Shown here in pieces: positions 1,645 to 33,873 of a DNA stretch of 64,000 nucleotides. Location of the stretch: positions 3,424 through 67,423 of the forward strand of contig JAJDAK010000011.1 in NCBI GenBank assembly GCA_029261895.1, read 5' to 3'. The position numbers were made by a program, and so were the translations under genes. The notes under the pieces are model-generated. The model searched no databases. It saw only the letters and a list, made by a program, of their open reading frames with translations, and had not been told where the DNA came from. Source of the stretch: Deltaproteobacteria bacterium. GTDB taxonomy: Bacteria; Myxococcota_A; UBA9160; SZUA-336. Each line of letters starts with the position of its first letter. Position 1 is the stretch's first letter.

Positions 1645-1676
1645 GGAATCCTCCGTCGCTGCGCGCGGAGCATACC

Positions 1677-2636
1677 CTAGGAGATCGGCGCTTGTCTCAT
1701 CAGTTCGATTCCCGCGTGTGGAGCGTCGGTGGTATGCACCACGGTAAGCGCAACCCCGCCAGCGGTATGTTCGGTGCGGATGCAAATTGGGATGCTCGGC
1801 TCAGAGCTTTCGACTGCATCTCGAATCAACTGTTCGAGCATGGGTCCAACTTCAGCGGGGTCGAATCCGAGTTTCGGCAGGTCTTCTACCAGCGAGAGTT
1901 CGACCACCAATTTATGGTCTTCGAGTAACGCACGACTGCGGTCGACCGCGGTGATGACCAAATCATTGAGCGTGGCCGGCCATTGCCGCGAAACCGTGGG
2001 GACCGAAGAAGTCGTGGCGTCTCGAATCGCGGTTGCGCAGCGCCGCGTCATGCGGAGCACATCGCGTAACGCGCGCTCCATCGCCTGAAAAGAGTCCGGA
2101 CCTGAACGCTCCATCAACGCGCACTCTGCCGCCATCTGAATGGTCGCTAGCCGATTGTTGAGCGAATGCGCGAGCTGGTCGATCGCCTGCACGGCCGGTT
2201 CAGCCCCGATCGCGGGCTCATCGTGTACTCGATCCAGCATCCGCCCGACACCGACAATCTGGGTACTGCCATCGTTCGATAGCGTGGCTGTTACTAAAAT
2301 CTCATAGAGGCAGCTCTGGCCTTCGCGTTTCTTCAAGCGAAGCTTGAAACATCGAGGCAACCGACTCGAACGCAGCTCGGTCAACTCCTGTGTCAGCTGT
2401 TTCCAATCCTGCACATGCACGATGTCGGAAATCGGCGCGCCGTGGAGTTCTTCCTGGGTGTAACCCAGGCGCTCTGAACCACCGCGATTCGTGAAGGTGA
2501 CATGATCTTCAGCATCGAGCTCGAAGACGAGATCGGAGATCGCATCCAGGATTCGGCGTGAACGATCCCGCTCCGCGCCGAGGTTCTCACGCGGTGCACC
2601 CCCTCTGGGCGGGCGGCTGGGATCGTCATATAGCAT
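1677..2636 (-). CDS. PAS-domain sensor histidine kinase-like protein, with HisKA-like dimerisation and an apparently incomplete ATPase domain
   Basis: ORF track 1677..2723 with a GTG start. The internal ATG at 2636 is my preferred start. It has a PAS-like block (ILDAISDLVFELDAEDHVTFTN...), an H-box region (AHSLNNRLATIQMAAE) and an N-box-like C-terminus. No G1/G2 glycine boxes are visible. It is transcribed divergently from the four-domain fusion gene. Confidence 0.5.
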   Translation of the reverse strand: MLYDDPSRPPRGGAPRENLGAERDRSRRILDAISDLVFELDAEDHVTFTNRGGSERLGYTQEELHGAPISDIVHVQDWKQLTQELTELRSSRLPRCFKLRLKKREGQSCLYEILVTATLSNDGSTQIVGVGRMLDRVHDEPAIGAEPAVQAIDQLAHSLNNRLATIQMAAECALMERSGPDSFQAMERALRDVLRMTRRCATAIRDATTSSVPTVSRQWPATLNDLVITAVDRSRALLEDHKLVVELSLVEDLPKLGFDPAEVGPMLEQLIRDAVESSEPSIPICIRTEHTAGGVALTVVHTTDAPHAGIELMRQAPIS

Positions 2637-2755
2637 GAGCCAATACCCCCGGCGCCAATTCTCGCAGGATACCCTTTTTCGACGCCAACGGAGTCCCAGC
2701 CGTTGTAGAATATCGTCTGACACACCGTCAGTTTTCTGTGAAGGGAAAGGATCAG

Positions 2756-5700
2756 ATGCCAGCGCGGTACCTCATGGGCTTGGACCTCGGCGGCAGCGGA
2801 GGGCGCTGCCTATTACTGGATCCGGATTCCGGAGAGCAGTTCGTGAGCACGCGCGCCTGGCGCCACGCTCCGGTTCAAGACCAGGGCAATCTCGCTTTCA
2901 ACCTTAACTTTAATGAAATCGATCAAGCCCTTACCAACACCATTGCTGAGGCGCTGGAGCTGGCGGGAGCACAGGCTTCGGACATCGCTGGAATCGCGTG
3001 TACCGGAATGCGCCACGGCATGGTCCTGACCGATCGCGACCTGCAACCCATCTTCGCGGTCCCGACCCGCGATACACGAGCTGCGCTCAGCATCGGCGAA
3101 CTGGTGAACAGCGTCGGACCGCGCTGTTTGGAAGAATGCGGTTCCTGGCCGAACCCGGTTCATCTGGCTACCCGACTGCGCTGGCTCGCAACCACCCAAG
3201 ACGAGCTTTGGCGAGAGGCGAGCTGCGTGCTCGGCATCGGCGAATACTTTGCAGCGCGGCTCAGCGGCGAAGCCGCTGCGGAGCCCTCCCAAGCCAGTGC
3301 CAGCGTGTTGTTGAATCTCGCGAGCCGCGATTGGGCCTGGAACTTAATAGATGACTTGAACTTTCCACGTGAACTCTTTCCAGCAGTTCGTGTTGCAGGA
3401 TCTCCGCTTGGACATGTCACAGACGAGGCCGCCTCGGCGCTTGGATTGACGCCCGGCACGCCGGTGATCATCGGCGCTGGCGATACGCATGCTGCGTTGC
3501 TGGCGGCTGGCGTTGTGGAGCCCGGGCAGATAGGTATCTGTGCCGGTAGCACGGCTCCGCTCATGGGCGTTCTCGAGACGCCGCGCATCGATCCCGACGG
3601 TCGCCTTTGGGTCGAACCCCATATCATTCCTGGACGCTCGGTCGTTGAAAGCAACGCCGGTGGCGTCGGTGAAGCGCTCGAATGGTTCGCCCGCTTGCTC
3701 TTCCGCGATGAGATCTACCCGATGGATCACCTCTTTGCGAACGCCGCCGAAGCCAGGCTTGGATCCCGCGGGGTGCTTTCGACTTTAGGGCCGCAGGTGA
3801 TGGACGGAAAGTCGCTCGCTTTCCCCCTCGGCCGTATTCACCTCACACCGTTTTCACTGATCGACACCGCAGCCGATCGCGCGGATCTCGCGCGTGGTGT
3901 GGTGGAAGGGATCGCCTATGGGTTGCGCGCTAACGCCGAACAAATCATCGCGCATATGGGGACGGTCCCCGAGGAAATCGTAATTACCGGTGGACTGGCG
4001 AGGAATACATTCTTCACTCAACTCTTGAGTGATGTATTGAATCGCCCTGTTGCGGTAGCCAAAGGCGAGCAGACCACGGCGCTGGGAGCTGCACTCTCTG
4101 CCGGGGTCGGTGTAGGCGTATTCGAGAATCTCAGCCAGGCCAGCGCAGTCACGCGTGCTGTGGAACGCCGACATGAACCCCATCCCGATCACGCCGCCGC
4201 CTACGAGTCGATCTACCAAGGTTGGTCGCGTGTTCGTAATGCGGCGATGCCCGGGGATGCCGAGGCGGCCGGCTTGACGATCCAGACTTCGCTGCGTGAA
4301 GCACCAGCGGTCCAATCCTCAGCCGCGCTGCGTTTTCGTCCGAAGATTCTGGTGACCGCTGAATTGGATGCGTTGAGCCTCGAGCGGCTGCAGAATTTGG
4401 GTGACGTCGAGTACGCGAGTTTTCGCGACGCCATGCGGTTGCTCACGGGACCCGACTTGGTCGAAGCCCTCAAAGGCGTACACATCTTCATCACGGAAGT
4501 GGATGTTGTTGACGCTGCGGTGCTCGAACAAGCGACAGACCTCCGGGCGATCGCCATCTGTCGCAGCGACGCGGTAAACGTGGACCTCGAAGCCTGTACC
4601 GCCGTTGGCATCCCCGCGTTGCACGCACCCGGTCGCAATGCCGACGCGGTGGCGGATCTCACACTCACCTACATGCTCACACTGGCGCGCAAATGGGTCG
4701 ATGCCACGCAGTTTCTGCAGCGTCCCGGCGGCGAGGCCGGCGACATGGCGCGGATGGGTCAGGCGTTTCAGGAACTCCTGGGTCACGAGCTTTGGCAGAA
4801 AACCGTCGGCTTGGTTGGCCTGGGTGCCGTGGGTCGACAGGTCGCGAAACGTCTGCAAGCATTCGGCGCAAAGCTCTTGGTCTTCGATCCATATCTCCCG
4901 TCTCAGGCCGCGCGTGTGCTTGGCGCAGAACCCGTTGATTTAGACGAGCTACTCACGCGCAGTGATTTCGTCAGCCTGCACGCTCCCGTTACTCCCACGA
5001 CTGAAGGGATGATCGGTGGGCCCGAGTTCGGACGCATGAAACAGGGTGCGATGTTGATCAACTCGGCTCGCGCTGCGTTGGTCGACTACGACGCGTTGAT
5101 CACGAGTTTAAAGAGCGGTCACTTGGGTGGCGCCGCGGTGGATGTCTTTCCGATCGAACCGCCCGCGGCCGACGACCCGCTGCTCTCCATACCCAATTTG
5201 ATCGCGACGCCACATATCGGTGGGAACACCGTGGAGGTCGGCGCCCACCAGGGCGAGATTATTACGGACGATCTCACACGCATGCTCCGCGGCGAAGCGC
5301 CGCAGCACGCGTTGAATCCCGCTGCACTCGAGCGGTTCCGTTGGGACGGAAGTCGGGAAACCCTGGACACCGACACCTGGGATGACCTCAAGCGCGCCGC
5401 AGGTCCGACGGTCTCGGGTCCACAGAGGGCACCCGCCGTTGCAGCGGTTGCGGCAAAGCCCGAGACGGATCCAGCCTCGCGCCGCGACGACGCACAGTAC
5501 GTGAACGCGCGAGCCAAGATGCAGCCGCTTCTCGGAGCATTCGTGGCGGATTGTCTGGACGATGATGCGCTCGGCACGTTCGCTAACGGCAAATCCGTCA
5601 TCCTGCATTTCATCTTGAACGATCTCGACTTGGACTTTCAGCTGGGCTTTGCGGGTGACCGTGTCATCGGTGAGCTAGGCGCACCGAATCCAGATCCTGA

Positions 5701-6580
5701 CGTACAGCTAAAAATGAAAGCCGATATTTTCGACGGCATGTTCACGGATCGCGTCAATCCAATGCAGGCTGCGATGAACGGAAAGCTCAGCTTCAGCGGC
5801 GATACCGCGAAAGCGATGACGCTGCAACAGATTCAAGCGGATCTCTCACGAATCTACAGCGCCACACGCGAGAGAGTTGGAGATCCCGGGGATCTCGGCG
5901 CGCTCGAGCCTGCTTCGGCCGCGGTTTCGGTCCCGGAAGGCGGCGAGGGCCAAGCGTTGAAACAGGAATTGGTCGACGTGGTGAACGAACTCTATTCCAC
6001 ACAGTTGATCACGGCGACCGGCGGGAACGTCAGCGCGCGAATTCCGGAAACGGACGAACTCTGGATCACACCCAGCCAACTCTTTAAGGGCGACCTCTCG
6101 CCCGAAATCCTGGTGCGCATCGATATTGAGGGCAAGGCGGTGGGAGACCAAGCCCTCTCGGCGTCGAGCGAACGTATGATGCACTGCGCGATTCTGAAAG
6201 CGAAACCGGAAGCGCAGGCCGTTGTTCACGCGCACGCCCCCCATGCGACCATTCTTGCCAATACCGGCCTCCCCTTCTTACCGATCTCCACTGAAGCGGC
6301 GTTCTTCTCGGAGATCCCACGCATACCGTTCATCATGCCGGGTACGAACGAGCTCGCAGAGGCTATCGCGGAAGCGATCGGTGATGGTTGGGCGGTCTTG
6401 ATGCAAAATCATGGGTTGTTGGTCGCGGGTCGCAGCCTGCGCCGAGCCGCAGACATGGTCGAAATCATTGAACGCACCTGTGAAGTGATTCTGGGTTGCT
6501 ACGCCGTCGGTAAAGAACCGCCCGTGCTACCCGAAGAAACCGTTGCGATCTTGCGAGAGATGGGCGACCTCGTCGCCTAG
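2756..6580 (+). CDS. Four-domain fusion protein: FGGY carbohydrate kinase, D-isomer-specific 2-hydroxyacid dehydrogenase, SCP2 sterol-carrier domain, class II aldolase/adducin domain
   Basis: One continuous frame (ORF track 2738..6580 from a GTG start). The ATG at 2756 follows the AGGA-rich stretch ending at 2751. Kinase: GLDLGGSGG...IGAGDTHAALLAAG...GGLARNTFFTQLLSDVLNRPVAVAKGEQTTALGAALSAG. Dehydrogenase: VGLVGLGAVGRQVAKRLQAFGAKLLVFDPY...NLIATPHIGGNT. SCP2: NPMQAAMNGKLSFSGDTAKAMTLQQI. Aldolase: ATGGNVSAR...SSERMMHCAILKA...VVHAHAPHATILA. Confidence 0.8.
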   Translation: MPARYLMGLDLGGSGGRCLLLDPDSGEQFVSTRAWRHAPVQDQGNLAFNLNFNEIDQALTNTIAEALELAGAQASDIAGIACTGMRHGMVLTDRDLQPIFAVPTRDTRAALSIGELVNSVGPRCLEECGSWPNPVHLATRLRWLATTQDELWREASCVLGIGEYFAARLSGEAAAEPSQASASVLLNLASRDWAWNLIDDLNFPRELFPAVRVAGSPLGHVTDEAASALGLTPGTPVIIGAGDTHAALLAAGVVEPGQIGICAGSTAPLMGVLETPRIDPDGRLWVEPHIIPGRSVVESNAGGVGEALEWFARLLFRDEIYPMDHLFANAAEARLGSRGVLSTLGPQVMDGKSLAFPLGRIHLTPFSLIDTAADRADLARGVVEGIAYGLRANAEQIIAHMGTVPEEIVITGGLARNTFFTQLLSDVLNRPVAVAKGEQTTALGAALSAGVGVGVFENLSQASAVTRAVERRHEPHPDHAAAYESIYQGWSRVRNAAMPGDAEAAGLTIQTSLREAPAVQSSAALRFRPKILVTAELDALSLERLQNLGDVEYASFRDAMRLLTGPDLVEALKGVHIFITEVDVVDAAVLEQATDLRAIAICRSDAVNVDLEACTAVGIPALHAPGRNADAVADLTLTYMLTLARKWVDATQFLQRPGGEAGDMARMGQAFQELLGHELWQKTVGLVGLGAVGRQVAKRLQAFGAKLLVFDPYLPSQAARVLGAEPVDLDELLTRSDFVSLHAPVTPTTEGMIGGPEFGRMKQGAMLINSARAALVDYDALITSLKSGHLGGAAVDVFPIEPPAADDPLLSIPNLIATPHIGGNTVEVGAHQGEIITDDLTRMLRGEAPQHALNPAALERFRWDGSRETLDTDTWDDLKRAAGPTVSGPQRAPAVAAVAAKPETDPASRRDDAQYVNARAKMQPLLGAFVADCLDDDALGTFANGKSVILHFILNDLDLDFQLGFAGDRVIGELGAPNPDPDVQLKMKADIFDGMFTDRVNPMQAAMNGKLSFSGDTAKAMTLQQIQADLSRIYSATRERVGDPGDLGALEPASAAVSVPEGGEGQALKQELVDVVNELYSTQLITATGGNVSARIPETDELWITPSQLFKGDLSPEILVRIDIEGKAVGDQALSASSERMMHCAILKAKPEAQAVVHAHAPHATILANTGLPFLPISTEAAFFSEIPRIPFIMPGTNELAEAIAEAIGDGWAVLMQNHGLLVAGRSLRRAADMVEIIERTCEVILGCYAVGKEPPVLPEETVAILREMGDLVA

Positions 6581-7650
6581 GACTGAACCGTTCGCTTGCC
6601 CAAGAGATTGAGCTTGTAGCGACGTATCGTCTCGGGGGCGATCCGTTGACCATCGGTGCTCTCAAATGCGAGCGCGTCCATCGGGCATTGCACGACGCAA
6701 GCACCACAGCGCACACAACGATCGTCATGAGCCAAAATCGCTTTACGAGGCTCTGATTGTTTTTCGAAGCACGCTTCCGGACAAACCTCCCAACATGAGA
6801 ACACGCCCTGGCAACGATCCCGGTCTAGAGAGATCCGCCACTCGCGCTCCGCAAAATGACTTCCACCTTCAATAGGCGTTGAACCGGAGTAATCGAATGT
6901 CAGTACACCGGACAAAAACCATGTCGAGAGAAATGCAGCAGCCCAGGTGCTCGGACCCCCATGGATACAAAGGACCACGAGTGCAGCGACCGCAGTTGCA
7001 AGTAGCGTGAACAAGGTTCTTCGCGGTTCTGGCAAGCGGTCATAGAACTGAAACATGGTGATCGCAAGGACGACCGCCCAAATGACAATCGGCAAGGCGA
7101 ACTCGGAAAATGCAAACGCCCCAACGCCACCGACTACGATCGCCGTAGGAGTCGCCCAGGCGGCCGCCATTTCCAAGCGTTCACGCGTGCCGAAGCGTAC
7201 GCGCCGCATTGCGTCGTCTTTCTTCGCGCCACGCGCGAGATAGCGCGGAATATCTACTGCATCCACGGGACCGAAACGAACCTTCCAACCACAGCGGCGT
7301 GACACCTCGCGTGCTTCAACGCCCGTCGCCGCCAGTTGAGGCAAGATCGCACGCCGATGGGTGACTCGATCTTCGATGCCCGAAGTTTTGAGCGCACTCA
7401 CGACCTGATGCGTGCTGAAGTGTCCTCCCGCAGCCGCGCACCAGATATTGATGCCCGAACTCGGCGCAACGACCAGCCACGCGTCCATACCTTTGAGGGC
7501 TCGGATCACAGACCGAACCGTGAAATCGTAGTTCCCGGTCACGAGTACCGGACTGCTCGAATCCGGTTGCCCGATCGCTCGCAGGCCCGGTTCGGTCGAC
7601 CAGGGAAAAAGACGAAAGCCGGTTTGCATGACGTTGCGCAAGAGACTCAT
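6577..7650 (-). CDS. HgcA-like corrinoid-binding membrane protein fused to an HgcB-like 2x[4Fe-4S] ferredoxin (fused HgcAB-like)
   Basis: ORF track 6577..7893. The ATG at 7650 forms an ATGA overlap with the stop of the upstream methyltransferase. The N-terminal domain has the HgcA-family signature VLVTGNYDFTVRSVIRALKGMDAWLVVAPSSGINIWCAAAGGHF and the downstream DRVTHRRAILPQLAATGVEAREV motif. About 4 predicted TM helices follow. The C-terminus has CQGVFSCWEVCPEAC and CVRCGACVVQCP. Confidence 0.75.
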   Translation of the reverse strand: MSLLRNVMQTGFRLFPWSTEPGLRAIGQPDSSSPVLVTGNYDFTVRSVIRALKGMDAWLVVAPSSGINIWCAAAGGHFSTHQVVSALKTSGIEDRVTHRRAILPQLAATGVEAREVSRRCGWKVRFGPVDAVDIPRYLARGAKKDDAMRRVRFGTRERLEMAAAWATPTAIVVGGVGAFAFSEFALPIVIWAVVLAITMFQFYDRLPEPRRTLFTLLATAVAALVVLCIHGGPSTWAAAFLSTWFLSGVLTFDYSGSTPIEGGSHFAEREWRISLDRDRCQGVFSCWEVCPEACFEKQSEPRKAILAHDDRCVRCGACVVQCPMDALAFESTDGQRIAPETIRRYKLNLLGKRTVQS

Positions 7651-8969: not shown

Positions 8970-9788
8970 CTATGAATTGCGCGAAAAGAAGAGCCGCTTC
9001 GCGTTCATGTAGAGATACTTGTCGAGCACGCCTTCGCGCAGATCGAGCCCAGCGGCTTCTTCAAGACAGCGCACCATCGAGAGTGCTGGGTGGTCGGAAG
9101 CAAAGATCACTTTGTCCTGGCCGCGCGTATTCATGTAGTGGATGAGCTCGGGCGGAAAATACTTTGGCGCGTACGCACTGGTCTTCAGATACAGGTTCTT
9201 ATATTTCAGCATCAACCGAATGGCTTCCTGCCACCAGGGGTCGGTGCCATGCGCCATCACCAGCTTCAACTCCGGAAAATGAAGGCATACTTTGTCGAGG
9301 TGCATCGGGTGCTGACATTCGCCGGGCACAGGCGGCCCAGGAATCCCCGTGTTGATCGTCACCGGTAAATCGAGCTCGATGCACTTGGCATAGACGGGAT
9401 AGTAAATCGGATCGCACCCCGGTCGATCGATCCAGAACGGCGTGACCCGCGCGAGAACGACCGGATAATTTTCCGCGAAACTCTCGAGCGCCCGAATGAC
9501 TTTCATCCCGCGGCGAGGATCCACCTGCGCGCCCAGCGAAAAGCGATCGGGATGGGCCTTGGGAAATGCGAGCACGTGGTCCGATGGCCGCTCGGGCTCC
9601 GTGGTGACGATCGCGCGTTCCACTCCCAAGCGATCCATTTCCTCCACGACTTCCTCGACTGAGTAATCGCGAAAAAAATCTTCGCCGCCATTGAACAGGT
9701 CTTCCGCCACGCGCACCAGGTAGTCGGGGCGGCCCAACTCGCTCATGTTGACGTTGATCCAGGTATCGATCGCCCGGAGATCAGTCAT
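8970..9788 (-). CDS. Amidohydrolase-2 family metal-dependent hydrolase (ACMSD/LigJ-like)
   Basis: 272 aa with PF04909-like features (HGTDPWW..., a C-terminal FASDHP motif). It overlaps the Rieske oxygenase gene by 8 nt. Confidence 0.7.
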   Translation of the reverse strand: MTDLRAIDTWINVNMSELGRPDYLVRVAEDLFNGGEDFFRDYSVEEVVEEMDRLGVERAIVTTEPERPSDHVLAFPKAHPDRFSLGAQVDPRRGMKVIRALESFAENYPVVLARVTPFWIDRPGCDPIYYPVYAKCIELDLPVTINTGIPGPPVPGECQHPMHLDKVCLHFPELKLVMAHGTDPWWQEAIRLMLKYKNLYLKTSAYAPKYFPPELIHYMNTRGQDKVIFASDHPALSMVRCLEEAAGLDLREGVLDKYLYMNAKRLFFSRNS

Positions 9789-10752
9789 CGCCGCGTAGAA
9801 TTGGCACGCTGAAAAACTGCTTCATCCAGCGTCGGTAGGTACCAATCTGGCCGTCTCCATCGCAGAGCAGTGGTCGGCTGTAGTAGTGCTTGTTCTCCCA
9901 AATGACGATGTCCTCCGCCATTTGTTTTTCCAAGTCTTTAACCAGCGCCGCTCCCACGCCCCGAGTGGCCGAAACCCCGTCGACCTCACGTACCGCGTAC
10001 GCGAAACTCACGTCAGTTGTGTCTTCATCAATCGGCGTTGAGGTATTGACCATCAAAGTTTCCGCGATTCCCGAAACATCAACGGTTTGCAACCCCGGCC
10101 CATAGTCCGTCGTATCGATCCCACCAGTGATCTCACCCTGCGGCGTACCCATCTTCATACGCGATCGGCAACGCAGAATATGACCGTCGATGTCGACTTC
10201 GGTCTCGGGAGACGTATGCGTGCCGTGCACGTAGCGGAAATGAATTTGATCGACAGCGTTCTCGTTCATATCCAGCCAACGACTCTTCACCGTCCAGCGT
10301 CGGATTTGATACGGCGACCATTCCGAAGACCCACATTGCCATAGCTCGGGCACCTCATACGAAGGCGGCTCGTCCTGATCGTGATACCAAGTAAAGAGCA
10401 AGCCGTTACGTTCGACCAAAAGCCATGCACGCATCTTCGCCGTACGAGGAATTTTCTTCGCATACGGAATCTCGATACAGCGCCCTTCTCCATCCCAGAG
10501 CCATGCGTGGAACGGACAGCGAATTCCCTTGCCATCTACCGTACCTCCAAAACCGAGATGCGCGCCCAGGTGAGGACAGTGCGCGTCGAGCAGATGTGCC
10601 TCGCCTTCTTCATCACGAAAGAGCACCAGATGCTGACCGAAGTAGTGCAACGCTTTGACCTCGCCGGCCGCGATGTCATCCGCATACGCGATGCGAAACC
10701 AACCGTTCGCATAGGCGGGAAACGGAAAACGTTGAGAAATCTGACGATCCAT
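9781..10752 (-). CDS. Rieske [2Fe-2S] non-heme iron oxygenase alpha subunit (phthalate-dioxygenase/KshA/VanA-like family)
   Basis: 323 aa. Rieske motif CPHLGAHL...CPFHAW, followed by a catalytic domain. Confidence 0.8.
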   Translation of the reverse strand: MDRQISQRFPFPAYANGWFRIAYADDIAAGEVKALHYFGQHLVLFRDEEGEAHLLDAHCPHLGAHLGFGGTVDGKGIRCPFHAWLWDGEGRCIEIPYAKKIPRTAKMRAWLLVERNGLLFTWYHDQDEPPSYEVPELWQCGSSEWSPYQIRRWTVKSRWLDMNENAVDQIHFRYVHGTHTSPETEVDIDGHILRCRSRMKMGTPQGEITGGIDTTDYGPGLQTVDVSGIAETLMVNTSTPIDEDTTDVSFAYAVREVDGVSATRGVGAALVKDLEKQMAEDIVIWENKHYYSRPLLCDGDGQIGTYRRWMKQFFSVPILRGDD

Positions 10753-12620: not shown

Positions 12621-13865
12621 TCAGCTCGAAGCGCCATCCAGGCCGTAGTCGAAGAGCACCTTCACGGCGGAAGTTCTGCCCTGCCGATAACAGGTCAGAA
12701 AGGCTCGGCTGTAATCCTCGAGCGCAAAGCGATGCGTAATGATCGGCGTCACGTCGATATGCTTGTCGCGGATGAATTCGAAATACCATTCCATCGCGTG
12801 CTTGCGTCGCCCCTCGTATTCCTCGGTCGCGAATGCATTCGAGCCAATCACCCGCAGTTCTTTAAAGTAGAGCGGCGTCCACTCGAATCGCTTGGGCGTC
12901 TCAACGCCGGTCACCACGATTCGACCCCGTGGTCGTGTGATCCGTACACCAATTTCCAAGGTTTCCGCTTTGCCGACCGTGTCATAGATCAGGTCGACTC
13001 CACCATTGATCATCGGAAGCCCACGCCAGGGCGTGTAGAGTTTCTGTTCCAATAACTCGGCGACGTTCTCGACCACTTCATCCTTGGGCCAGTGTTTTAT
13101 GATCTTCTCTGCACCGAACTTTTCGGCCAGCACTGCTTGATGGGCGAACCGTGCGACGGCAAACACACGCACCGTTGGAAAGAGCGCATGTAAAATGGTG
13201 ATCGTCAGTAACCCTAAGGTGCCGCAGCCATAGACCAATGCAACGGAGTCCGCTTGTGGTGGATCGCGAAGCACCGCATGCAACGCCACGGCAAAAGGAT
13301 CCGCGAGAACCGCTGAGCTATCGGAGATGTGATCCGGAATTGGAATACATTGCGATTCGTGCGCAGGAACGAATTTTGCGAACCCGCCCGTCGCTTGCAC
13401 ACTATTGCCGTGATGCAAACCTGCATCGATTGAGCCGTTGGTGAAATTCAAACACTGCGCGAACTCACCGCGTTGACACCAATCGCAGAGCGGCAAGCCA
13501 CGGGGTATGCAGGACAACCATGGATTCAACACGACCCTTTCACCGATGCGACGGCGTGTAACACCTGGCCCCACCCGCTCGATCGTACCGACGACTTCAT
13601 GACCCAATACCTGTGGGAATGAGATCAACGCCGTCATGGGGTTGTCCGAGGCACCGTTCAAGAAGACCTGTTTGGAATCGCTACCGCAGATCCCGCAGAG
13701 GTGCGTACGAATCACCACCCAGTCCGCAGCGGGTACGACCGGATCGGGAATCCGGCGCAATTGAAGCGGCGCTGTTGGGCCCACGTACGCGCCGGCCGTA
13801 AACAAACCGAGTGCACGGGTCGTCGCAAGTCGCGGCAATCTATGATCAAAGACCAGTGCACGCAT
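12621..13865 (-). CDS. Zn-dependent alcohol dehydrogenase (MDR superfamily)
   Basis: 414 aa. Catalytic-zinc region CGICGSD...GHEVVG. Confidence 0.75.
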   Translation of the reverse strand: MRALVFDHRLPRLATTRALGLFTAGAYVGPTAPLQLRRIPDPVVPAADWVVIRTHLCGICGSDSKQVFLNGASDNPMTALISFPQVLGHEVVGTIERVGPGVTRRRIGERVVLNPWLSCIPRGLPLCDWCQRGEFAQCLNFTNGSIDAGLHHGNSVQATGGFAKFVPAHESQCIPIPDHISDSSAVLADPFAVALHAVLRDPPQADSVALVYGCGTLGLLTITILHALFPTVRVFAVARFAHQAVLAEKFGAEKIIKHWPKDEVVENVAELLEQKLYTPWRGLPMINGGVDLIYDTVGKAETLEIGVRITRPRGRIVVTGVETPKRFEWTPLYFKELRVIGSNAFATEEYEGRRKHAMEWYFEFIRDKHIDVTPIITHRFALEDYSRAFLTCYRQGRTSAVKVLFDYGLDGASS

Positions 13866-22296: not shown

Positions 22297-22734
22297 GTGC
22301 CCATCGATGCCATCAGCCATATCGGGATCTGTGTATCCGACCTCGAAAGGTCTCTCACCTTCTACTGCGACCGGCTCGGCTTTCGCGAAGTCGCGGATCT
22401 CGAAATTGCGGGCGCCCAAGCCGAGCGCTTGCTGCAACTATCGAACGTGAAGCTGAAAGCCGTTTACCTCGAACGCGACGGCACACGGATCGAGCTGCTG
22501 AGTTTTGATCAACCCGGCACGGTGGATGACGATGAGGGTCGGCGGCTCAATCGTTTGGGACTGACACATCTCAGTTTCGCCGTTCATGATCTCGATGCGC
22601 TGGTCACCGAACTCGAGCGCGAGGGCGTACGCGTGCTTCACGAAACCCGGATCGGTGATGCGGCCGTTATGGTCACCGATCCCGACGGCACACGAATCGA
22701 GCTCTATCATTCGGACCGCGTGCCTAAGTCGTAG
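22297..22734 (+). CDS. VOC/glyoxalase-family protein
   Basis: 145 aa. ISHIGICVSDLERSLTFY and THLSFAV blocks. Confidence 0.7.
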   Translation: MPIDAISHIGICVSDLERSLTFYCDRLGFREVADLEIAGAQAERLLQLSNVKLKAVYLERDGTRIELLSFDQPGTVDDDEGRRLNRLGLTHLSFAVHDLDALVTELEREGVRVLHETRIGDAAVMVTDPDGTRIELYHSDRVPKS

Positions 22735-23845
22735 CGTTTAATCCGAGGCCGTGGCGCGCGATCACGCCGCGCATCATTTCCGATGTACCGCCACCGATGG
22801 TTTCCCAAATACTTTGACGCCACAGTAGTTCGACTGTGCCACCAGCGGCAATGAGCTCGGCTCCCCCGATTTCCTGTGCAAAACGTGCGATGTTTTGACA
22901 GCTAGTGGTCCAGGCGAGTTTGTTGCGCGCGGCTTCAATCGTGGAATTCCGTCCCGCCTCGACGGCGGCGACCACCGAGAGTGCGTGCATCTCAACCTCT
23001 CGAACCTCGACCACAAGCTCTGCCAGCCTTCTCCGTACGAAGTCATCGTCCGTGAGCTGGAGCCGACCCGCAAACGCGATCACGTCTTCGAGATCGCGGC
23101 GCAGACGCTTCGGCGGAAACTGCACGTGACGTTCGGCCGCCAGCGCATCTGCCATCAGTTTCCACGCCCCGTCCTCGGGCCCGACGCGATTGGCCGCGGG
23201 AACCTCGACACCATCGAGTCTGATTTCATTGAGTTGCTCGCCATCCATCAAGGGCAGCGGTTGGATCGATACACCCGCAGCGTGGAGATCGACGATGAAG
23301 AGGCTGAGTCCACGACCTCGGCTCTCTTGCGTGCCGGTTCGCGCCAAGAGCCAGAGGTAATCGGCGTCCTGTGCATACGAAGTCCAACATTTCTCGCCAT
23401 GCATCACGTAGGAGTCGCCTGTCTTTTCCGCGCGGGTACGCACCGAGGCAAGGTCCGACCCTGCCTCGGGTTCCGAATACCCGAGTGAAAAATGCATCTC
23501 ACCCGAGGCAATGCTCGGTAGAAAACGCGCACGTTGTTCGTCGCTGCCATGCTGGATCAATGTCTTCGCGACGATGCCAGGTGCGAGCGGCGGTCGTGCC
23601 GCACGCGTGTATGCCATCTCGTCCCAAAGAATAAATTCAAAACTCGCGGGGCGGTCCAGTCCACCCACCGCCTCTGGCCACGATAGCGAGAGCCAGCCTT
23701 TTCTCCCCATGGCCTCAAAGAGCGCCCGCACTTCCGGCCATCGCCGATCCTGATACAGGAATCCGTTAAGCTCGCGATAGTCGGCTAAGAACTCCCGCAC
23801 TTCGGCACGAAAGCGTTCTGCATCGTCGGGAAACCTAAAGTTCAT
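22724..23845 (-). CDS. Acyl-CoA dehydrogenase
   Basis: ORF track 22724..23968. The ATG at 23845 forms an ATGA overlap with the upstream crotonase stop. Sequence: MNFRFPDDAERFRAEVREF...SLGYSEPEAGSDLASV. Confidence 0.8.
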   Translation of the reverse strand: MNFRFPDDAERFRAEVREFLADYRELNGFLYQDRRWPEVRALFEAMGRKGWLSLSWPEAVGGLDRPASFEFILWDEMAYTRAARPPLAPGIVAKTLIQHGSDEQRARFLPSIASGEMHFSLGYSEPEAGSDLASVRTRAEKTGDSYVMHGEKCWTSYAQDADYLWLLARTGTQESRGRGLSLFIVDLHAAGVSIQPLPLMDGEQLNEIRLDGVEVPAANRVGPEDGAWKLMADALAAERHVQFPPKRLRRDLEDVIAFAGRLQLTDDDFVRRRLAELVVEVREVEMHALSVVAAVEAGRNSTIEAARNKLAWTTSCQNIARFAQEIGGAELIAAGGTVELLWRQSIWETIGGGTSEMMRGVIARHGLGLNATT

Positions 23846-24711
23846 ACGTCGGACTCGGTGTTCCGCGCATTCGGATCTGGATTCCACTTGGGTTTGCGTT
23901 TTTCCGCGAACGCACACGGCCCTTCCTTGAAGTCTGGGTGTGCCCAGTGCAGGCGAAGCAACGCCCATGCATGCTCGAGCGCGTCTTGGTAGCTGCGCTC
24001 AAGAGAACCCCAAACGGCCTGCTGTGAAAGTGACATCGCCTGTGGGGAATTCTCCAGCATCGCTCGCGCCATTTCCTCCGCGGTTTTGAGCAGTGCATCG
24101 GCAGGAACCAATTCATCCACCAAGCCGAGTTCATAAGCGCGTTTAGCGGGCATCCGATAGTGACGACCCATCAAAGTCATTCTCAGCGCGGAACCCAGCG
24201 GTAGACGTTTCGCGAGACCCACATTCTCAAGCGCACCCACCATTCCCACATTCACGTGCGTATCCATGAACGCGGCGTTCTCGGTTGCGATCACGATATC
24301 TGCGTCGACAACGAAATGAAGACCGGCACCTACCGCGAGTCCGTTGACGGCACAAATCGTCGGCTTCCAGACATCGTTATGTCGCGGTGACCAGAATACG
24401 TCCTCTTTGAACGGTAGATTGTTTGCGACGGCTCCCGATTCATCGATCGACGTAACGTCGAAGCCCGTCGAAAAATGTCGCTCACCCGCCGCGGTCACGA
24501 TTGAGACGCGGACGTCGCCGTCCTCACGCACATCCCGCCAAATCGCACGAAAGATCTGCTCCATCCTCTTCGTGAGTGAATTACCCTTGTCCGGACGGTT
24601 GATGGTGATGAACGCGATTCCATCCCGTTTCTCGTAGAGAATTCCATCGAGTGGGGCCTCGAGGTCAATATCCTCGTATCGAAATTTCACCATGGATGAT
24701 TCTCCCTTCAA
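23842..24711 (-). CDS. Enoyl-CoA hydratase/isomerase (crotonase family)
   Basis: 289 aa. ...GIAFITINRPDKGNSL...AVNGLAVGAGLHFV. Confidence 0.85.
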   Translation of the reverse strand: MKGESSMVKFRYEDIDLEAPLDGILYEKRDGIAFITINRPDKGNSLTKRMEQIFRAIWRDVREDGDVRVSIVTAAGERHFSTGFDVTSIDESGAVANNLPFKEDVFWSPRHNDVWKPTICAVNGLAVGAGLHFVVDADIVIATENAAFMDTHVNVGMVGALENVGLAKRLPLGSALRMTLMGRHYRMPAKRAYELGLVDELVPADALLKTAEEMARAMLENSPQAMSLSQQAVWGSLERSYQDALEHAWALLRLHWAHPDFKEGPCAFAEKRKPKWNPDPNARNTESDV

Positions 24712-25637
24712 TCCGAGAACGACTCGAACGCGCGCGTAGCGGCGTTCGCATCGGCAATCGGTGCTGAAATCAACTCACGAATACGACGACCCTGTAGATA
24801 GACTGGCCCTTCGATCGTAATGCCGATCGCGCCAAAGACCTGATGGCAGGTGTAGAGCGTTTCGAGCGCGTTCTTGGCTGCAGATACGCGCGCGGTCGCA
24901 GCAACCGAGGAGGCTTGACCCGTCGCATCGAACTCGTCCGCCGCTGCACGCGCGAGCCATCGACTGGCATGCAGCGATGTGGAGCGGTCGGCCAAGGGAT
25001 AGCTCACGGCTTGAAACTCCCCGATCGCGCGGCCAAACTGCTGCCTTGTCCGCGCGTGTTCGACGGTGCGGGTCAGCAGCGAATCCGCCGCAGCACCCAA
25101 GTACGCCGCCATCGCAATATCGGTCAGTGTGCGCGCGCGCCCAAGACCTGTGAGCTCTCGCTGCCGTGTGACGTCACCTTCAAACCAATCCCCGAGCGCG
25201 GTATTCAAGACGCGCGGCGGGGTGGCGAACTCCACCTGCCACGCGCGCTCGTCGTCGAGCTCAATAAAAACGCCGGCAAGATCCGCCCAGGGGAATAAGC
25301 CTCGCGCACCGACAGTGACCATCCGCTCCCCACTTACAATCGCCTCTACGGTTTCCGGCAGCATGACCTGGCTCGCGTAAACCGTTTCCAGTAGTGGGCC
25401 CGGAAACAACGCACGGCCCAAGGATTCCATGACGGCAGCGAGCTCGATCGCGCCCGATCCGCTCTCGGGCATCATCACGCCGAGAACGCCCAAATCTGCG
25501 AGCGAACGCCAAAGATCATCCGGAAATTTTTCAAGCGCTGCGTGCAAGACCGCTTCATCGCAGTGATCACGGCAAAAGAGATCGATCGACTCTGCGATCG
25601 CCGATTGTGCGTCGTCGTATTCGAGATCCAGACTCAA
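24708..25637 (-). CDS. Acyl-CoA dehydrogenase-family protein, probable partner subunit of a heteromeric ACAD
   Basis: ORF track 24708..25658 (TTG start). I shortened it to the TTG at 25637 so that it does not overlap the upstream gene. The ACAD C-terminal fold includes QQFGRAIGEFQAV. Confidence 0.6.
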   Translation of the reverse strand: MSLDLEYDDAQSAIAESIDLFCRDHCDEAVLHAALEKFPDDLWRSLADLGVLGVMMPESGSGAIELAAVMESLGRALFPGPLLETVYASQVMLPETVEAIVSGERMVTVGARGLFPWADLAGVFIELDDERAWQVEFATPPRVLNTALGDWFEGDVTRQRELTGLGRARTLTDIAMAAYLGAAADSLLTRTVEHARTRQQFGRAIGEFQAVSYPLADRSTSLHASRWLARAAADEFDATGQASSVAATARVSAAKNALETLYTCHQVFGAIGITIEGPVYLQGRRIRELISAPIADANAATRAFESFSD

Positions 25638-26566
25638 GAAATGGCTCCCGCTTGCCAACGCGCCTTGCTCAATGCGAGGTGGTGCGCGCTGACTCCGCCC
25701 AATTCGAGTCGAAGTGCCTGCAGACGCATACTCCAGACATGCAAATCATGTTCGCGTGTATATCCGATGGCGCCGCTGAGTTGATGCGTTTCATTAAAGA
25801 CCTGGCTCGCGGCCAACATACTCTGCGCGGCGGCAGCCGCGACCGCTTCTTCAGGCGCGCCAAGCCAGGCGGCCTCATAGGTCAGCCACCGGCTGCCTTC
25901 TACCAATACGTGACAGTCGGCAAGGCGGTGCTGCACGGTCTGGAATGATCCGATCGCACGGCCGAACTGCTTGCGTGTCTTCAAATAATCCAACGTGCAC
26001 TGCAGAGCGCTCTGCATCGTGCCAACCGCTTCCGCCGCGATGCCCAGGCGCCACCATCGCCGAAGTTTGCTCCCACTGCCGATACCAAGACCTTCACCCC
26101 GAACGCTTTTCAGTCGACCCATCGGATACCCGAAATTCGACGGCACCGGCATCGCATCACCCGCATCAAGGGCCATCAGCTCGGCTTCTTCACCGCGATC
26201 CACGAGGACGGTCCGAGCTTGCGCGGCGAAGCGAATCGGTGCAGCTACATCGCCACTCGCCAGCGCGACGGGCGTACTGGGTTCGTGACGCAACACAGCC
26301 GGCACAACCAGCAGCGACGCCATCGAGGCAACGGTACCCGCCGCAGCTGCACAGGCTTCGACTACAAGTACGGCTTCGAGCGGCCCGGTTTCGCCGCCAT
26401 TCATAAGCTCAGCGAAGCCCGCGCTGATGAGCGCTTCCTCTAGCTCGAAATCGTATTCGGTTTTTCGCGCCAACTCGATCGCGCGTTTGGCACCCGCGCG
26501 TCGCGCAAGCAGTGTCTGCACGGCTTCGAGGATCGCGCGCTGTTCATCGCCGAGTTCAAAATCCAT
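25634..26566 (-). CDS. Acyl-CoA dehydrogenase-family protein (short form)
   Basis: 310 aa. KQFGRAIGSFQTVQHRLAD. Confidence 0.7.
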   Translation of the reverse strand: MDFELGDEQRAILEAVQTLLARRAGAKRAIELARKTEYDFELEEALISAGFAELMNGGETGPLEAVLVVEACAAAAGTVASMASLLVVPAVLRHEPSTPVALASGDVAAPIRFAAQARTVLVDRGEEAELMALDAGDAMPVPSNFGYPMGRLKSVRGEGLGIGSGSKLRRWWRLGIAAEAVGTMQSALQCTLDYLKTRKQFGRAIGSFQTVQHRLADCHVLVEGSRWLTYEAAWLGAPEEAVAAAAAQSMLAASQVFNETHQLSGAIGYTREHDLHVWSMRLQALRLELGGVSAHHLALSKARWQAGAIS

Positions 26567-26568
26567 CG

Positions 26569-27714
26569 CTACCCCTTCGGCAAGCCGAGCGCGCGCGAGG
26601 CGATCAGACCCAATTGAATCTCGGTTGTTCCCACGGCCACACCGGCCGTCATCGCCATACGGAAATTCTTATCCGCGAAGCCGCCGTACTCGAGCGCATC
26701 CGCGCCATGAACCTGGAGTGCCAACTCGGCAATCGCGCGATCGGCGCGGGTACCAGCGACCCGTGCAACGTTGGAATCCGGCGTCGGTGGTAAACCATGC
26801 GCGCGTTGATCCACCACGCGATACGTCAGTACCCGCGCAGCTTCACAGAGCGCCCGCGCCTCCCCCAAACGCTCCTGAATACGTAGATCATCAAGCAGGC
26901 CGCGCTCGCGCGCGTGCTCTGCGATTTCATCGAGCGTCTTGGCCGCGCGTGCATACCTGGGAGCACCGACACGCTCGTACTGCAGCGCGTAACTCACGAT
27001 CGACCAACCCTCGTGCTCCGGTCCCAAGAGACATCCAATAGGAACCCGTACATCTGTCAAAAAGACTTCGTGGAAGTAGCGATCCCCCACAACCGCTGGG
27101 ATTTCTCGAACCTCTATTCCGGGAAGATCCATGGGCATGAGGAGCACAGAAATACCGCGATGACGCTGCGACTCTGGATCCGTCCGCACCAGCAAGAAAC
27201 AATACTGCGCGTTGTTCGCGTACGAAGTCCAAATTTTCGAGCCGTTCACGACGTAGTCATCACCATCGCGAAGTGCCAGCGTACGCAATGCGACTAAATC
27301 CGAACCCGCTTCGGGCTCAGAAAAACCCTGACACCAAAGCACCTGCCCGCTTGAAATCAAAGGAAGGTGGTGGGCCTTCTGTTCCTCGGTTCCGTACTGC
27401 ATGATCGTCGGACCGATCCAATTCACGTTCATGTACTGCGGACCCCGAGGTTCGCCACGCGCCCACATCTCTTCGCTGAGAACGATATGCCGCCACGCGG
27501 TCGCATCGCCACCACCGTATTCGCTCGGCCAATGCTGCGTGAGCCAGCCGCGTTCGGCGAGTTTACCGGCGAACTCGTAGGAGAACTCCGCCTGCGCGTC
27601 GCTACCGGGGCCGTCTGCGGATAGCTCCGACCATGTTTCGGGCAGCGCTTCCTCAACGAACGCGATCAGCTCGCGTCGATAGCGTCGATCTTCTTCGGAC
27701 CAACCGAACTCCAT
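26569..27714 (-). CDS. Acyl-CoA dehydrogenase
   Basis: 381 aa. QGFSEPEAGSDLVALRT...VVNGSKIWTS. Confidence 0.85.
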   Translation of the reverse strand: MEFGWSEEDRRYRRELIAFVEEALPETWSELSADGPGSDAQAEFSYEFAGKLAERGWLTQHWPSEYGGGDATAWRHIVLSEEMWARGEPRGPQYMNVNWIGPTIMQYGTEEQKAHHLPLISSGQVLWCQGFSEPEAGSDLVALRTLALRDGDDYVVNGSKIWTSYANNAQYCFLLVRTDPESQRHRGISVLLMPMDLPGIEVREIPAVVGDRYFHEVFLTDVRVPIGCLLGPEHEGWSIVSYALQYERVGAPRYARAAKTLDEIAEHARERGLLDDLRIQERLGEARALCEAARVLTYRVVDQRAHGLPPTPDSNVARVAGTRADRAIAELALQVHGADALEYGGFADKNFRMAMTAGVAVGTTEIQLGLIASRALGLPKG

Positions 27715-32295: not shown

Positions 32296-33873
32296 ATGAA
32301 CTGGCCCGAACACGTCGCGACCGTTCCAGCCGCACTCGAAGCCTGGGGCGGAAAATTCGGGTCGCGCACCGCCTTGGTGGACGGAGCGCGCCGCCTCACC
32401 TACGCCGCGCTCGATCATGAGTCCGCAAAACTCGCAGCCGGGCTCATCTCCCAGGGTGTCGGTAAAGGCCATCACGTCGGGCTGCTGATGCCAAACGGAG
32501 CCGATTGGGTGCTCGCATTTCTGGCAGCCGCCCGAATCGGCGCCGTGATCGTGCCGATCAACACGTTCTACCAAAGCCGCGAGTTGAGACGCACGTTGAA
32601 CCATGGCGATGTCGAAACCCTGCTGATGACTCAGCGCTTTGCCAACCACGATTACCCGGCATTGCTCGAGGACACGGTTCCCGGACTTTGCGATCAGACC
32701 GATTTGATTTGCTGCCCCGAGGTTCCATGCCTGCGACGTGTGTTTATTTGGGGAAACGTCGAAGTTCCCTGGGCGCGATCCGCCACCAATCTCTTGCAGT
32801 TCGGTTCTGCGTACGGGCCCTTGCAAGCTGGTCTCTCGAAGAACGTCGTACCCGCGGATCGCCTACTGCTCATGCATACGTCGGGCAGCACTGGCGAACC
32901 CAAAGCGGCAATCCATACGCATGGCTCAGTGATCCGACATTCGTACCAACTCGCCATGACCCGCGATCTAAGGGAAGACGACTGCGTTTGGTCGCCGATG
33001 CCGTTCTTCTGGATCGGTGGTTTGGTCTTTAGCCTGCTTGGAGCCCTGCACCGCGGCGCATGCTTCGTCGCGCAGGGCAAGTTCGATCCGCGCGCAACAC
33101 TCGAAATCATGGAGAAAGAACGCGTTACGTTGGCACTCGCATGGCCACATTACGGGCGCGCGCTGGCTGAGGACCCTTCGTTTAAGGCCCGTGACCTTTC
33201 CGCGCTTCGCGGCGGCAACCTCCAGGAAATTTTACCGAACGATCTTAAACCGTCGGATCCAAGCTTACGTGCGAATAGCTTAGGCATGACGGAAACCTGT
33301 GGGCCCCATACCTTCGCCGAGGGCACGTTGCCCGAACGGCTGCGCGGCTCTTTTGGCCCAGCACTTCCGGGTCTTGAACATCGCATCGAAAACGATGAAA
33401 TCTTGGTTCGCGGTTACGCGTTGATGCAAGGTCTCTATAAGGAAGAGCGCGAAGACACCTTCGATGCCGACGGTTTCTATCACACGGGTGACTCGGGCCA
33501 CTTCGATTCTGAAGGTCAGCTCTTTTTTACCGGTCGCTTGACCGAACTCATCAAGACCGCGGGCGCGAACGTCAGTCCAGCCGAAGTTGAAACCGTGCTG
33601 CTGGAGCGCCCAGAGATCGAGCAGGCCTATGTCTTTGCCATACCGGATCCCGAACGCGACCAAGTGGTCGGCGCCGCCTTGGTGTTATGCGAGGGCGCAA
33701 GTGTTGATGCTGAAGCCCTGCGCGTGCACCTCAAATCCCTGATCGCGAGTTATAAAATTCCGTCTCGAATTTTCTTTCTCGAACGCAGCGCGCTCCCCCT
33801 CACCGACACCGGCAAGGTAAATCGCCACGAGCTCTCGCGCGCACTACAAGGCTTAGAACAGCACCGCCGCTGA
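32296..33873 (+). CDS. AMP-dependent acyl-CoA synthetase/ligase
   Basis: 525 aa. LMHTSGSTGEPKAA. Confidence 0.85.
   Translation: MNWPEHVATVPAALEAWGGKFGSRTALVDGARRLTYAALDHESAKLAAGLISQGVGKGHHVGLLMPNGADWVLAFLAAARIGAVIVPINTFYQSRELRRTLNHGDVETLLMTQRFANHDYPALLEDTVPGLCDQTDLICCPEVPCLRRVFIWGNVEVPWARSATNLLQFGSAYGPLQAGLSKNVVPADRLLLMHTSGSTGEPKAAIHTHGSVIRHSYQLAMTRDLREDDCVWSPMPFFWIGGLVFSLLGALHRGACFVAQGKFDPRATLEIMEKERVTLALAWPHYGRALAEDPSFKARDLSALRGGNLQEILPNDLKPSDPSLRANSLGMTETCGPHTFAEGTLPERLRGSFGPALPGLEHRIENDEILVRGYALMQGLYKEEREDTFDADGFYHTGDSGHFDSEGQLFFTGRLTELIKTAGANVSPAEVETVLLERPEIEQAYVFAIPDPERDQVVGAALVLCEGASVDAEALRVHLKSLIASYKIPSRIFFLERSALPLTDTGKVNRHELSRALQGLEQHRR

Follow-up and report, generated by a model that had tools for sequence, protein, structure and literature searches.

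Why would a sugar kinase, a dehydrogenase, a lipid-carrier fold and an aldolase be joined in one polypeptide, and on what kind of compound could they act? This question is raised by a gene near the start of a 64,000-nucleotide stretch of DNA (the window, which here means the whole stretch that was analysed) from contig JAJDAK010000011.1 of assembly GCA_029261895.1, a Deltaproteobacteria bacterium placed by GTDB in Myxococcota_A. The gene encodes, in this order, an FGGY-family kinase, a D-isomer 2-hydroxyacid dehydrogenase, a domain of the sterol-carrier-protein-2 (SCP2) fold and a class II aldolase-fold domain, and it belongs to a widespread and conserved family which, judged by its sequences, is assembled from known parts. 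We propose, giving the proposal about an even chance, that the protein runs a catabolic cascade of phosphorylation, NAD+ oxidation and retro-aldol cleavage on an amphiphile with a terminal vicinal polyol head of the glycerol or alditol kind. We know of no described enzyme type for such a cascade. The lipid-type operons in which relatives of the gene are found, together with the built-in lipid-carrier domain, make this a concrete and testable hypothesis.

Integrity and spread of the fused gene

The open reading frame (ORF) listing of the window gives one frame on the forward strand, 2738..6580, which counts 1280 amino acids (aa) from a GTG. The ATG at 2756 is preceded by the purine-rich AAGGGAAAGGA, and the N-terminus read from this ATG agrees with the homologue consensus MxxxxLMGLDxGG. 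For this reason we take the product to be 1274 aa long, and the upstream GTG at 2738 is an unlikely alternative start. A preliminary description of this DNA, made from its letters, had read the frame as a fusion of the four domains named above. Pfam bears this out, since all four expected domain types were recovered above their gathering scores and in the same order, and the domain boundaries given at that time were off by no more than a few tens of bases.

Could the long frame have arisen as a chimera of the assembly, or from separate genes joined through sequencing errors? We found no point in support of this explanation, and a protein search returned an NCBI record with a sequence identical to the window protein. 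At least 120 further homologue clusters of 1230-1490 aa, 44-55% identical and each with the same Pfam set, are colinear with it over their full length; they come from independent assemblies and include complete isolate chromosomes. In the window ORF, GC content at third codon positions is 0.64-0.71 in each domain, the cosines of codon usage between domains (0.88-0.91) are not below those to a neighbouring gene, and no discontinuity at the junctions points to misassembly. In an alignment of 98 sequences, conservation drops only at the linkers (residues 501-525, 876-925 and 1051-1075). Because the homologues are colinear, composition and codon usage are even and the dips in conservation are confined to linkers, we regard a chimera or frameshift fusion as extremely improbable and, as far as sequences can tell, excluded for practical purposes, and we rejected it on these grounds. 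A promoter and terminator scan of positions 2400-7000 gave nothing exceeding shuffled expectation.

The homologues cover 93-100% of the query in nearly all cases, and the handful at 68-82% are variants with a tandem SCP2 pair and two others. Complete chromosomes of Mycobacterium kansasii, M. pseudokansasii, M. persicum and M. innocens carry the gene, and AGZ49501.1 is the orthologue of M. kansasii. When genomes were scanned with a single representative for each GTDB species, 80 loci aligning over practically the entire protein were kept, and these stand under the labels Myxococcota or 'delta' (metagenome-assembled genomes, MAGs), Anaerolineae, Thermoflexales, Mycobacterium, Ca. Uabimicrobium, Halioglobus, Binatia and others, with Bellilinea caldifistulae (strain GOMI-1) as a cultured member. 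Record titles of the family genomes name at least seven phylum-level groups, the MAG labels being uncurated. In the databases the homologues are called 'NAD(P)-dependent oxidoreductase', 'autoinducer-2 kinase' or 'L-ribulose-5-phosphate 4-epimerase'; these names are generic or wrong and thus misleading, and to expose them is the least that the present analysis does. The four-domain protein reaches no curated family (NCBIfam equivalog), and in the literature we found no description of an FGGY-dehydrogenase-SCP2-class II aldolase architecture. The earlier remark that no described protein of this architecture was known agrees with this for papers and curated families, but the protein is not unique, having more than 100 homologues under generic or wrong names. 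In M. tuberculosis, fucA, serA2 and xylB lie side by side at Rv0727c-Rv0729 and might be an unfused equivalent; the M. kansasii locus of the fused gene differs in context from that arrangement.

Catalytic domains and the SCP2 module

The kinase region was detected by both FGGY profiles (PF00370, residues 5-249, 121.7 bits against a threshold of 28.8; PF02782, residues 373-451, 67.1 bits against 27). Asp10 in the motif GLDLGG is invariant in alignments of 28 and of 98 sequences, Asp243 in GAGDT is at least 90% conserved, the ATP motif Gly412-Gly413 is conserved, and these residues line up with LsrK, the autoinducer-2 (AI-2) kinase, and with glycerol kinase. Against the PDB, the domain matched LsrK (5ya0) end to end at 214 bits, while glycerol and gluconate kinases reached 108-118. 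The best match by a wide margin is thus LsrK, yet the LsrK equivalog NF008187 was matched at 256.6 bits, half its cut-off of 528.

The dehydrogenase was recognized by 2-Hacid_dh (PF00389, residues 531-854, 55.1 bits) and, nested within this match, by 2-Hacid_dh_C (PF02826, residues 638-822, 181.6 bits), both above threshold. Its GxGxxG motif lies at residues 688-693 with Gly688, Gly690 and Gly693 invariant, and the invariant triad Arg772, Glu801 and His820 aligns with Arg236, Glu265 and His283 of human PHGDH. A Rossmann-fold Asp at the position of Asp711 indicates NAD and not NADP; since Asp711 is conserved, aligning with PHGDH Asp175, the sequence indicates that the enzyme is NAD-specific. 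The substrate loops CRSD and GRN stand where the motifs of 3-phosphoglycerate dehydrogenase (PGDH) would be, and they contain two family-specific invariant arginines, Arg603 and Arg627, which form a possible phosphate site consistent with a phosphorylated substrate. The SerA equivalog TIGR01327 was matched at 229.9 bits, below its cut-off of 454, over profile positions 32-315 of 525, and its ACT/ASB part found no match. An AlphaFold2 (AF2) model of residues 500-1274 had a mean pLDDT of 88.4 and a pTM of 0.65. A Foldseek search of the PDB with this 775-residue model gave McyI, GHPR and PHGDH, that is, matches to the dehydrogenase domain only, and no multi-domain analogue.

The C-terminal domain matched Aldolase_II (PF00596, residues 1070-1245) at 160.4 bits against a threshold of 22.2, and it aligns with E. 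coli FucA over its full length. The zinc ligands His1158, His1160 and His1219 are invariant and correspond to FucA His92, His94 and His155, as is Glu1139, the counterpart of the acid/base residue Glu73. Also invariant is the phosphate pocket, Gly1089-Gly1090-Asn1091 with Ser1137-Ser1138, in which Asn1091 equals FucA Asn29 and the serines equal Ser71-Ser72. At the position of Glu1139 the AraD epimerase has an Asp, so that this residue matches aldolases and not AraD in sequence. All three catalytic centres of the protein look intact in these alignments. The more specific assignment to a fuculose/rhamnulose or oxo-tetronate pathway, which had been considered at first, could not be upheld, for every equivalog model stayed far below its cut-off: the FucA models TIGR01086, NF005984 and NF005302 gave 89-101 bits (cut-offs 264-400), the OtnC (3-oxo-tetronate 4-phosphate decarboxylase) model NF043034 gave 102 (250), and the L-ribulose-5-phosphate 4-epimerase models NF005123 and TIGR00760 gave 109 (251) and 52 (389). 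The closest stand-alone aldolases (about 215 aa, 43-46% identical) likewise reach no NCBIfam cut-off.

A search for split forms found proteins of 371-479 aa spanning SCP2 and aldolase. Several of these are truncated gene calls (P0136, P0138), and P0142 alone looks complete. P0142 (373 aa) and P0158 (217 aa), which are 50% and 69% identical to the C-terminal part of the window protein, start with a Met in the linker region and may be a stand-alone SCP2-aldolase relative and an aldolase-only relative, respectively.

The SCP2 domain was found by Pfam (PF02036) at residues 947-1026 with 45.2 bits against a cut-off of 21.3. An AF2 model of the region (residues 905-1055; pLDDT 93.7, pTM 0.88) gave 44 significant Foldseek matches in the PDB, all 44 of them lipid-binding domains of the SCP2 fold: C-terminal domains of alkylsulfatases, UbiJ-SCP2, the SCP2-like domain of MFE-2 and classical SCP2s. 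In the model of residues 500-1274, disordered segments (889-909 and 1054-1058) flank the domain. It is kept in all 120 listed homologues with a column identity of 0.56-0.77 in the 98-sequence alignment, and one sub-lineage, with proteins of about 1450-1490 aa (P0002, P0061; loci L077, L079 and L080), has a tandem SCP2 pair between dehydrogenase and aldolase. This duplication argues, as far as sequence goes, that the module is functional and not a degenerate spacer.

A proposed cascade and its alternatives

How might these parts work together? FGGY kinases phosphorylate a terminal CH2OH having an adjacent hydroxyl, PGDH-like enzymes oxidise the C2 hydroxyl beside a CH2-O-phosphate, and in FucA-like enzymes a 1-phospho-2-keto-3-hydroxy unit is bound at the zinc and split between C3 and C4 into dihydroxyacetone phosphate (DHAP) and an aldehyde. 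In the cascade that we propose, the LsrK-like FGGY domain would phosphorylate the terminal CH2OH of the head group using ATP, the PGDH-like domain would then oxidise the neighbouring secondary alcohol with NAD+ to a ketose-1-phosphate-type head, and the FucA-like zinc domain would release DHAP and a lipid aldehyde, R-CHO, by retro-aldol cleavage at C3-C4. The SCP2 domain, between its flexible linkers, would hold the hydrophobic tail or ring and possibly offer the head group to one active site after another; a holder of R is its best explanation, because no listed member lacks it, it is duplicated in some members and its neighbouring linkers are flexible. These linkers are also the one sign seen of the substrate channelling that had been suggested at first. 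What the data show are the identities of the domains, their intact catalytic residues, the SCP2 fold, the conserved fusion and the operon partners; we infer the order of the steps, the class of substrate, lipid binding by SCP2, and cleavage in place of epimerisation or decarboxylation. The aldehyde could be carried on by a Zn-dependent alcohol dehydrogenase (Zn-ADH) or an aldehyde dehydrogenase (ALDH) to the acid, by an acyl-CoA ligase to the CoA ester, and by ChsE-like acyl-CoA dehydrogenases (ACADs) and an enoyl-CoA hydratase (ECH) into beta-oxidation.

Genes of these kinds recur near the family, as the processing of a hydrophobic R-CHO would need. In 84 related loci we searched by tblastn, up to 10 kb from the fused gene, with the proteins of the window as queries. 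The partners found there are a cytochrome P450, a KshA-like Rieske oxygenase, an AMP-forming acyl-CoA ligase, a block of ACAD and ECH genes and a Zn-ADH, with the frequencies and distances given in Table 1; in all, P450 matches were present in 19 loci and KshA-like genes, 44-63% identical, in eight. The fullest operon (L087, on a 755-kb contig) has the ACAD-ECH-ACAD-ACAD-ACAD block and the order AMP-ligase, TetR, P450, fused gene, KshA-like gene. The best PDB matches of the adjacent type of P450 are, by a modest margin, CYP125 and CYP142, which are steroid C26-monooxygenases. The M. kansasii copy is surrounded by FadD-type ligases, an aldehyde dehydrogenase, an acyltransferase and a WS/DGAT gene. 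These operon partners are homologous to genes of actinobacterial steroid side-chain clusters (Cyp125/Cyp142, KshA, FadD19, ChsE-type alpha2beta2 ACADs, EchA19), although we know of no homologue of the fused gene from described steroid pathways. The presence of SCP2 had been taken from the start to make a sugar-only substrate less obvious, and the lipid- or steroid-type operon context strengthens this argument.

Could the substrate nevertheless be a small soluble polyol, deoxy-sugar or sugar acid, such as a tetritol or pentitol, a 5-deoxy-pentose-type compound or a DPD/AI-2-like diketone, degraded by a fused pathway in which SCP2 serves for structure or oligomerisation only? We hold this to be rather unlikely, and several observations weigh for it and against a lipid substrate. 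The lipid-type partners (P450, KshA-like, AMP-ligase, ADH or ACAD genes) lie within 10 kb in 24 of the 84 loci only, so that about three quarters are without such a context. Three Anaerolineae loci, that of Bellilinea among them, have directly upstream on the same strand a SorC/LsrR-type regulator (HTH and PF04198), of a type that senses phosphosugars, and another Anaerolineales locus has GntR, PfkB, 3beta-HSD/epimerase, short-chain dehydrogenase/reductase (SDR) and GFO/IDH/MocA genes; the Anaerolineae neighbours thus look like sugar metabolism. The kinase is nearest to LsrK, and an FGGY kinase with a class II aldolase-fold enzyme and a dehydrogenase is typical of the fucose/rhamnose, erythritol/threitol and oxo-tetronate routes. 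SCP2 folds can be purely structural, as in the Eis acetyltransferases, which were among the low-ranking Foldseek matches. As to the chemistry, D-2-hydroxyacid dehydrogenases usually act beside a carboxylate, and the position of FucA Tyr113, the second catalytic residue, is taken by Ile1177; three residues beyond stands Glu1180, which is nearly invariant. The aldolase domain also scores alike against aldolase, epimerase, decarboxylase and dehydratase models, so that cleavage is a presumed reaction.

Against a soluble substrate stand the presence of SCP2 in every listed member, its good conservation and its duplication in one lineage, the lipid-binding nature of all its nearest structures, and the tight operon coupling with P450, KshA-like oxygenase, acyl-CoA ligase and beta-oxidation genes. 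Moreover, in a Pfam census covering the 139 ORFs closest to the fused gene in about 70 loci, no sugar transporter consistently adjoined that gene. The context of the family is variable and heterogeneous: the census held 112 different families, led by P450 (nine) and by aldehyde dehydrogenase, SDR, TetR and methyltransferase (four each), followed at three each by AMP-ligase, KshA_C Rieske, NAD-epimerase/3beta-HSD and SorC-type 'Sugar-bind' regulators.

The proposed cascade can be compared with several known systems. The E. coli L-fucose/D-arabinose route (FucK, FucA, FucO) uses the same kinase and aldolase families and the same logic, with terminal phosphorylation and cleavage of a ketose-1-phosphate to DHAP and an aldehyde, which is left to another enzyme. 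It differs in having separate proteins, soluble sugars and no SCP2, and its ketose comes from an isomerase, whereas that of the fused protein would come from the PGDH-like dehydrogenase; Tyr113 and the aldehyde-side residues of FucA are not kept in the fused protein. In AI-2 systems, the lsrR-lsrK pairing is echoed by the SorC/LsrR-type regulator beside the fused gene in the three Anaerolineae genomes, and LsrK tolerates alkyl-extended DPD analogues; however, LsrF, LsrG and the Lsr transporter are not present with the fused gene, and here the kinase is fused to three other domains. In erythritol and tetritol catabolism (Brucella EryA/EryB, M. smegmatis LerK/LerI), a polyol is phosphorylated by an FGGY kinase, the polyol phosphate is dehydrogenated and class II aldolase-fold enzymes act on tetrulose phosphates. 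These routes differ in the dehydrogenase family and in having separate proteins, soluble C4 substrates and no SCP2. A fusion of catalytic domains to an SCP2 that recruits a hydrophobic substrate is found in MFE-2/HSD17B4, SCPx and the alkylsulfatases SdsA1 and Pisa1. SCP2 domains of the MFE-2 and alkylsulfatase type are the closest structural matches to ours, but the chemistry of these enzymes is that of beta-oxidation, thiolases and sulfatases, and none joins a kinase, a 2-hydroxyacid dehydrogenase and an aldolase.

The same domains could in principle run in the other direction. The aldolase would then join DHAP to a hydrophobic aldehyde bound by SCP2, with the dehydrogenase reducing what is formed and the kinase supplying or recycling a phosphorylated precursor; a signalling molecule or polyol lipid would result. 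In favour of this, the class II aldolase reaction is reversible, many 2-hydroxyacid dehydrogenases act as reductases, and the M. kansasii copy has acyltransferase and WS/DGAT genes nearby. This biosynthetic role seems improbable, since the NAD-specific Asp711 and an ATP-consuming kinase suit catabolism better, the operon partners are catabolic (TetR-regulated P450, acyl-CoA ligase, ACADs, ECH), and no biosynthetic core genes recur in the census.

What amphiphile might be degraded by the proposed catabolic cascade? The substrate could be bacteriohopanetetrol (BHT) or a comparable polycyclic lipid with an alditol tail, so that the enzyme would remove the side chain of a bacteriohopanepolyol, although we consider so specific a substrate very improbable. 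With the C35 hydroxyl of BHT phosphorylated and the C34 hydroxyl oxidised, the product would be a 5-substituted D-ribulose-1-phosphate, a compound of the class on which FucA/DrdA-type aldolases act. Its retro-aldol cleavage would leave, besides DHAP, the C32 hopanoid aldehyde, from which the C32 hopanoic acids and hopanols that are common in sediments could derive. SCP2 would act as a non-covalent swinging carrier of the triterpenoid between the three active sites. By our own chemical reasoning this would fit the domain chemistry, the SCP2 module and the Cyp125-, KshA- and ChsE-like operon partners. We found nothing in the literature linking such an enzyme to hopanoid side-chain degradation. 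Chemical cleavage of BHT by periodate likewise gives a C32 product, in a paper that is silent on enzymes (PMC12583986).

If the general proposal is true, the protein would provide a compact, CoA-independent route that harvests DHAP from the polar head of a lipid and exposes the tail for beta-oxidation. It would also be a rare case of a non-covalent lipid-carrier domain within a three-enzyme assembly line, of relevance to enzymology and pathway engineering. Among the hosts of the family are Myxococcota and Anaerolineae, heterotrophs abundant in sediments and the sea, as well as opportunistic pathogens from the M. kansasii complex, and such a route would therefore matter for how recalcitrant membrane lipids are turned over and for the diagenesis of biomarkers.

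Neighbouring genes in the window and in related loci

The window holds orthologues of every recurring operon partner, more dispersed than in L087 (Table 1), and genes for oxygenases and lipid oxidation are unusually frequent in it. The Rieske protein clearly belongs to the KshA type, since other Rieske families in the PDB reached at most 72 bits. The ACAD/ECH block is conserved with 46-74% identity beside the fused-gene operon in six loci (L007, L015, L026, L038, L065 and L087), and two of its ACADs (about 310 aa) are without a middle domain, as are the heteromeric ACADs of steroid side-chain degradation. Elsewhere the window encodes family III CoA-transferases, a MaoC-like hydratase, a START-domain protein, an SDR and further ligases. 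The ring-cleavage genes of the 9,10-seco steroid pathway, of the KstD, HsaA-D and IpdAB types, did not turn up in the part of the window's ORFs that was scanned.

Table 1. Positions of the fused gene, its domains, its neighbours and the partner genes of related loci (window coordinates unless a locus is named; numbers in the domain names are residues of the 1274-aa protein)
Feature	Position	Strand	Evidence or remark
Four-domain gene, complete ORF	2756..6580	+	1274 aa and stop, no internal stop
FGGY-family kinase domain, LsrK-like, 4-497	2765..4246	+	Pfam, PDB alignment, conserved residues
Variable linker 1, 498-527	4247..4336	+	conservation falls to 0.39 (98-sequence alignment)
D-isomer 2-hydroxyacid dehydrogenase domain, 528-858	4337..5329	+	Pfam, PHGDH alignment, invariant residues, Foldseek
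Disordered part of linker 2, 889-909, upstream of SCP2	5420..5482	+	pLDDT <50; conservation 0.34
SCP2-fold domain, 907-1041	5474..5878	+	Pfam, AF2 model, Foldseek
Class II (zinc) aldolase-fold domain, 1065-1274	5948..6577	+	Pfam, FucA alignment, invariant residues
Divergent PAS-domain gene	1677-2723	-	Pfam PAS; H-box LAHSLNNRL
TetR genes	8297-8878; 11982-12584		
KshA-like Rieske oxygenase	9781..10752	-	Pfam Rieske and KshA_C; PDB KshA 175 bits
Cytochrome P450	10804..11985	-	Pfam; related to the P450 directly upstream of the fused gene in 14 loci
Zn-dependent alcohol dehydrogenase	12621..13865	-	Pfam; orthologue directly upstream in L030, L035, L044
ACAD(414)-ECH(289)-ACAD(316)-ACAD(310)-ACAD(381) block	22724..27714	-	Pfam
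Acyl-CoA (AMP-forming) ligase	32296..33873	+	Pfam; 46-53% identical orthologues
P450 partner	14-78 bp upstream of fused gene	same	14 of 84 loci
KshA-like Rieske oxygenase partner	9-39 bp downstream of fused gene	same	6 of 84 loci
AMP-forming (acyl-CoA) ligase partner, orthologous	upstream of TetR-P450-fused gene		12 of 84 loci; 46-53% identity
ACAD-ECH-ACAD-ACAD-ACAD block partner	nearby		about 7 of 84 loci; up to 74% identity
Zn-ADH partner	directly upstream, ends 30-51 bp before fused gene		3 of 84 loci (L030, L035, L044); 63-65% identity
SorC/LsrR-type regulators	L048 8973-9977; L068 824-1786; L077 8915-9913	same	
Cysteine-rich protein, about 1000 aa	L087 12931-15975; L033 15030-17807; L065 15978-18755		47-64% identity; not in window

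The gene divergent from the fused gene had been described as a PAS histidine kinase. The PAS domain and an H-box are indeed there, but the HisKA match (16.7 bits) is below its threshold of 26.9 and the protein ends before the G1/G2 ATP-binding boxes, and for these reasons it is, by its sequence, a PAS protein whose kinase core is truncated or degenerate. A regulatory link between the two genes was rejected, as none of the 84 related loci has a counterpart of the PAS gene within 10 kb of the fused gene; the conserved neighbours are TetR, SorC or GntR regulators, rather than the PAS protein. On the other side, a convergent gene (6577-7893, reverse strand) encodes a CdhD-like domain (CO dehydrogenase/acetyl-CoA synthase delta subunit) with 4Fe-4S clusters. 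Its end overlaps that of the fused gene by 4 bp, and no such gene lies near the fused gene in any of the 84 loci. A 432-aa protein (487-1785, reverse strand) is matched by the AICARFT/IMPCHase (PurH) profile over the C-terminal two thirds of that profile only, and a 76%-identical copy of this protein lies upstream of the fused gene (4832-6097, reverse strand) in the locus of the closest relative, L004.

Some further genes were seen in passing. A protein of about 1000 aa, cysteine-rich, with an N-terminal signal-like segment and no Pfam match, recurs downstream of the pair of fused and KshA-like genes in related loci. The window encodes a second SCP2 protein (48657-50240, forward strand; 527 aa) with a 4Fe-4S motif at about residues 218-243 and a C-terminal SCP2 domain at 424-494 (32.4 bits). 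A hydantoinase A/hydantoinase B pair of the oxoprolinase or acetone-carboxylase type (28391-32247, reverse strand) adjoins the beta-oxidation block, and a 1223-aa ORF (33853-37524, reverse strand) has weak matches only, to lactonase beta-propeller and DUF7450. A second cytochrome P450 lies at 54887-56143 and an aldehyde dehydrogenase, matched at 596 bits, at 57494-59053, both on the forward strand.

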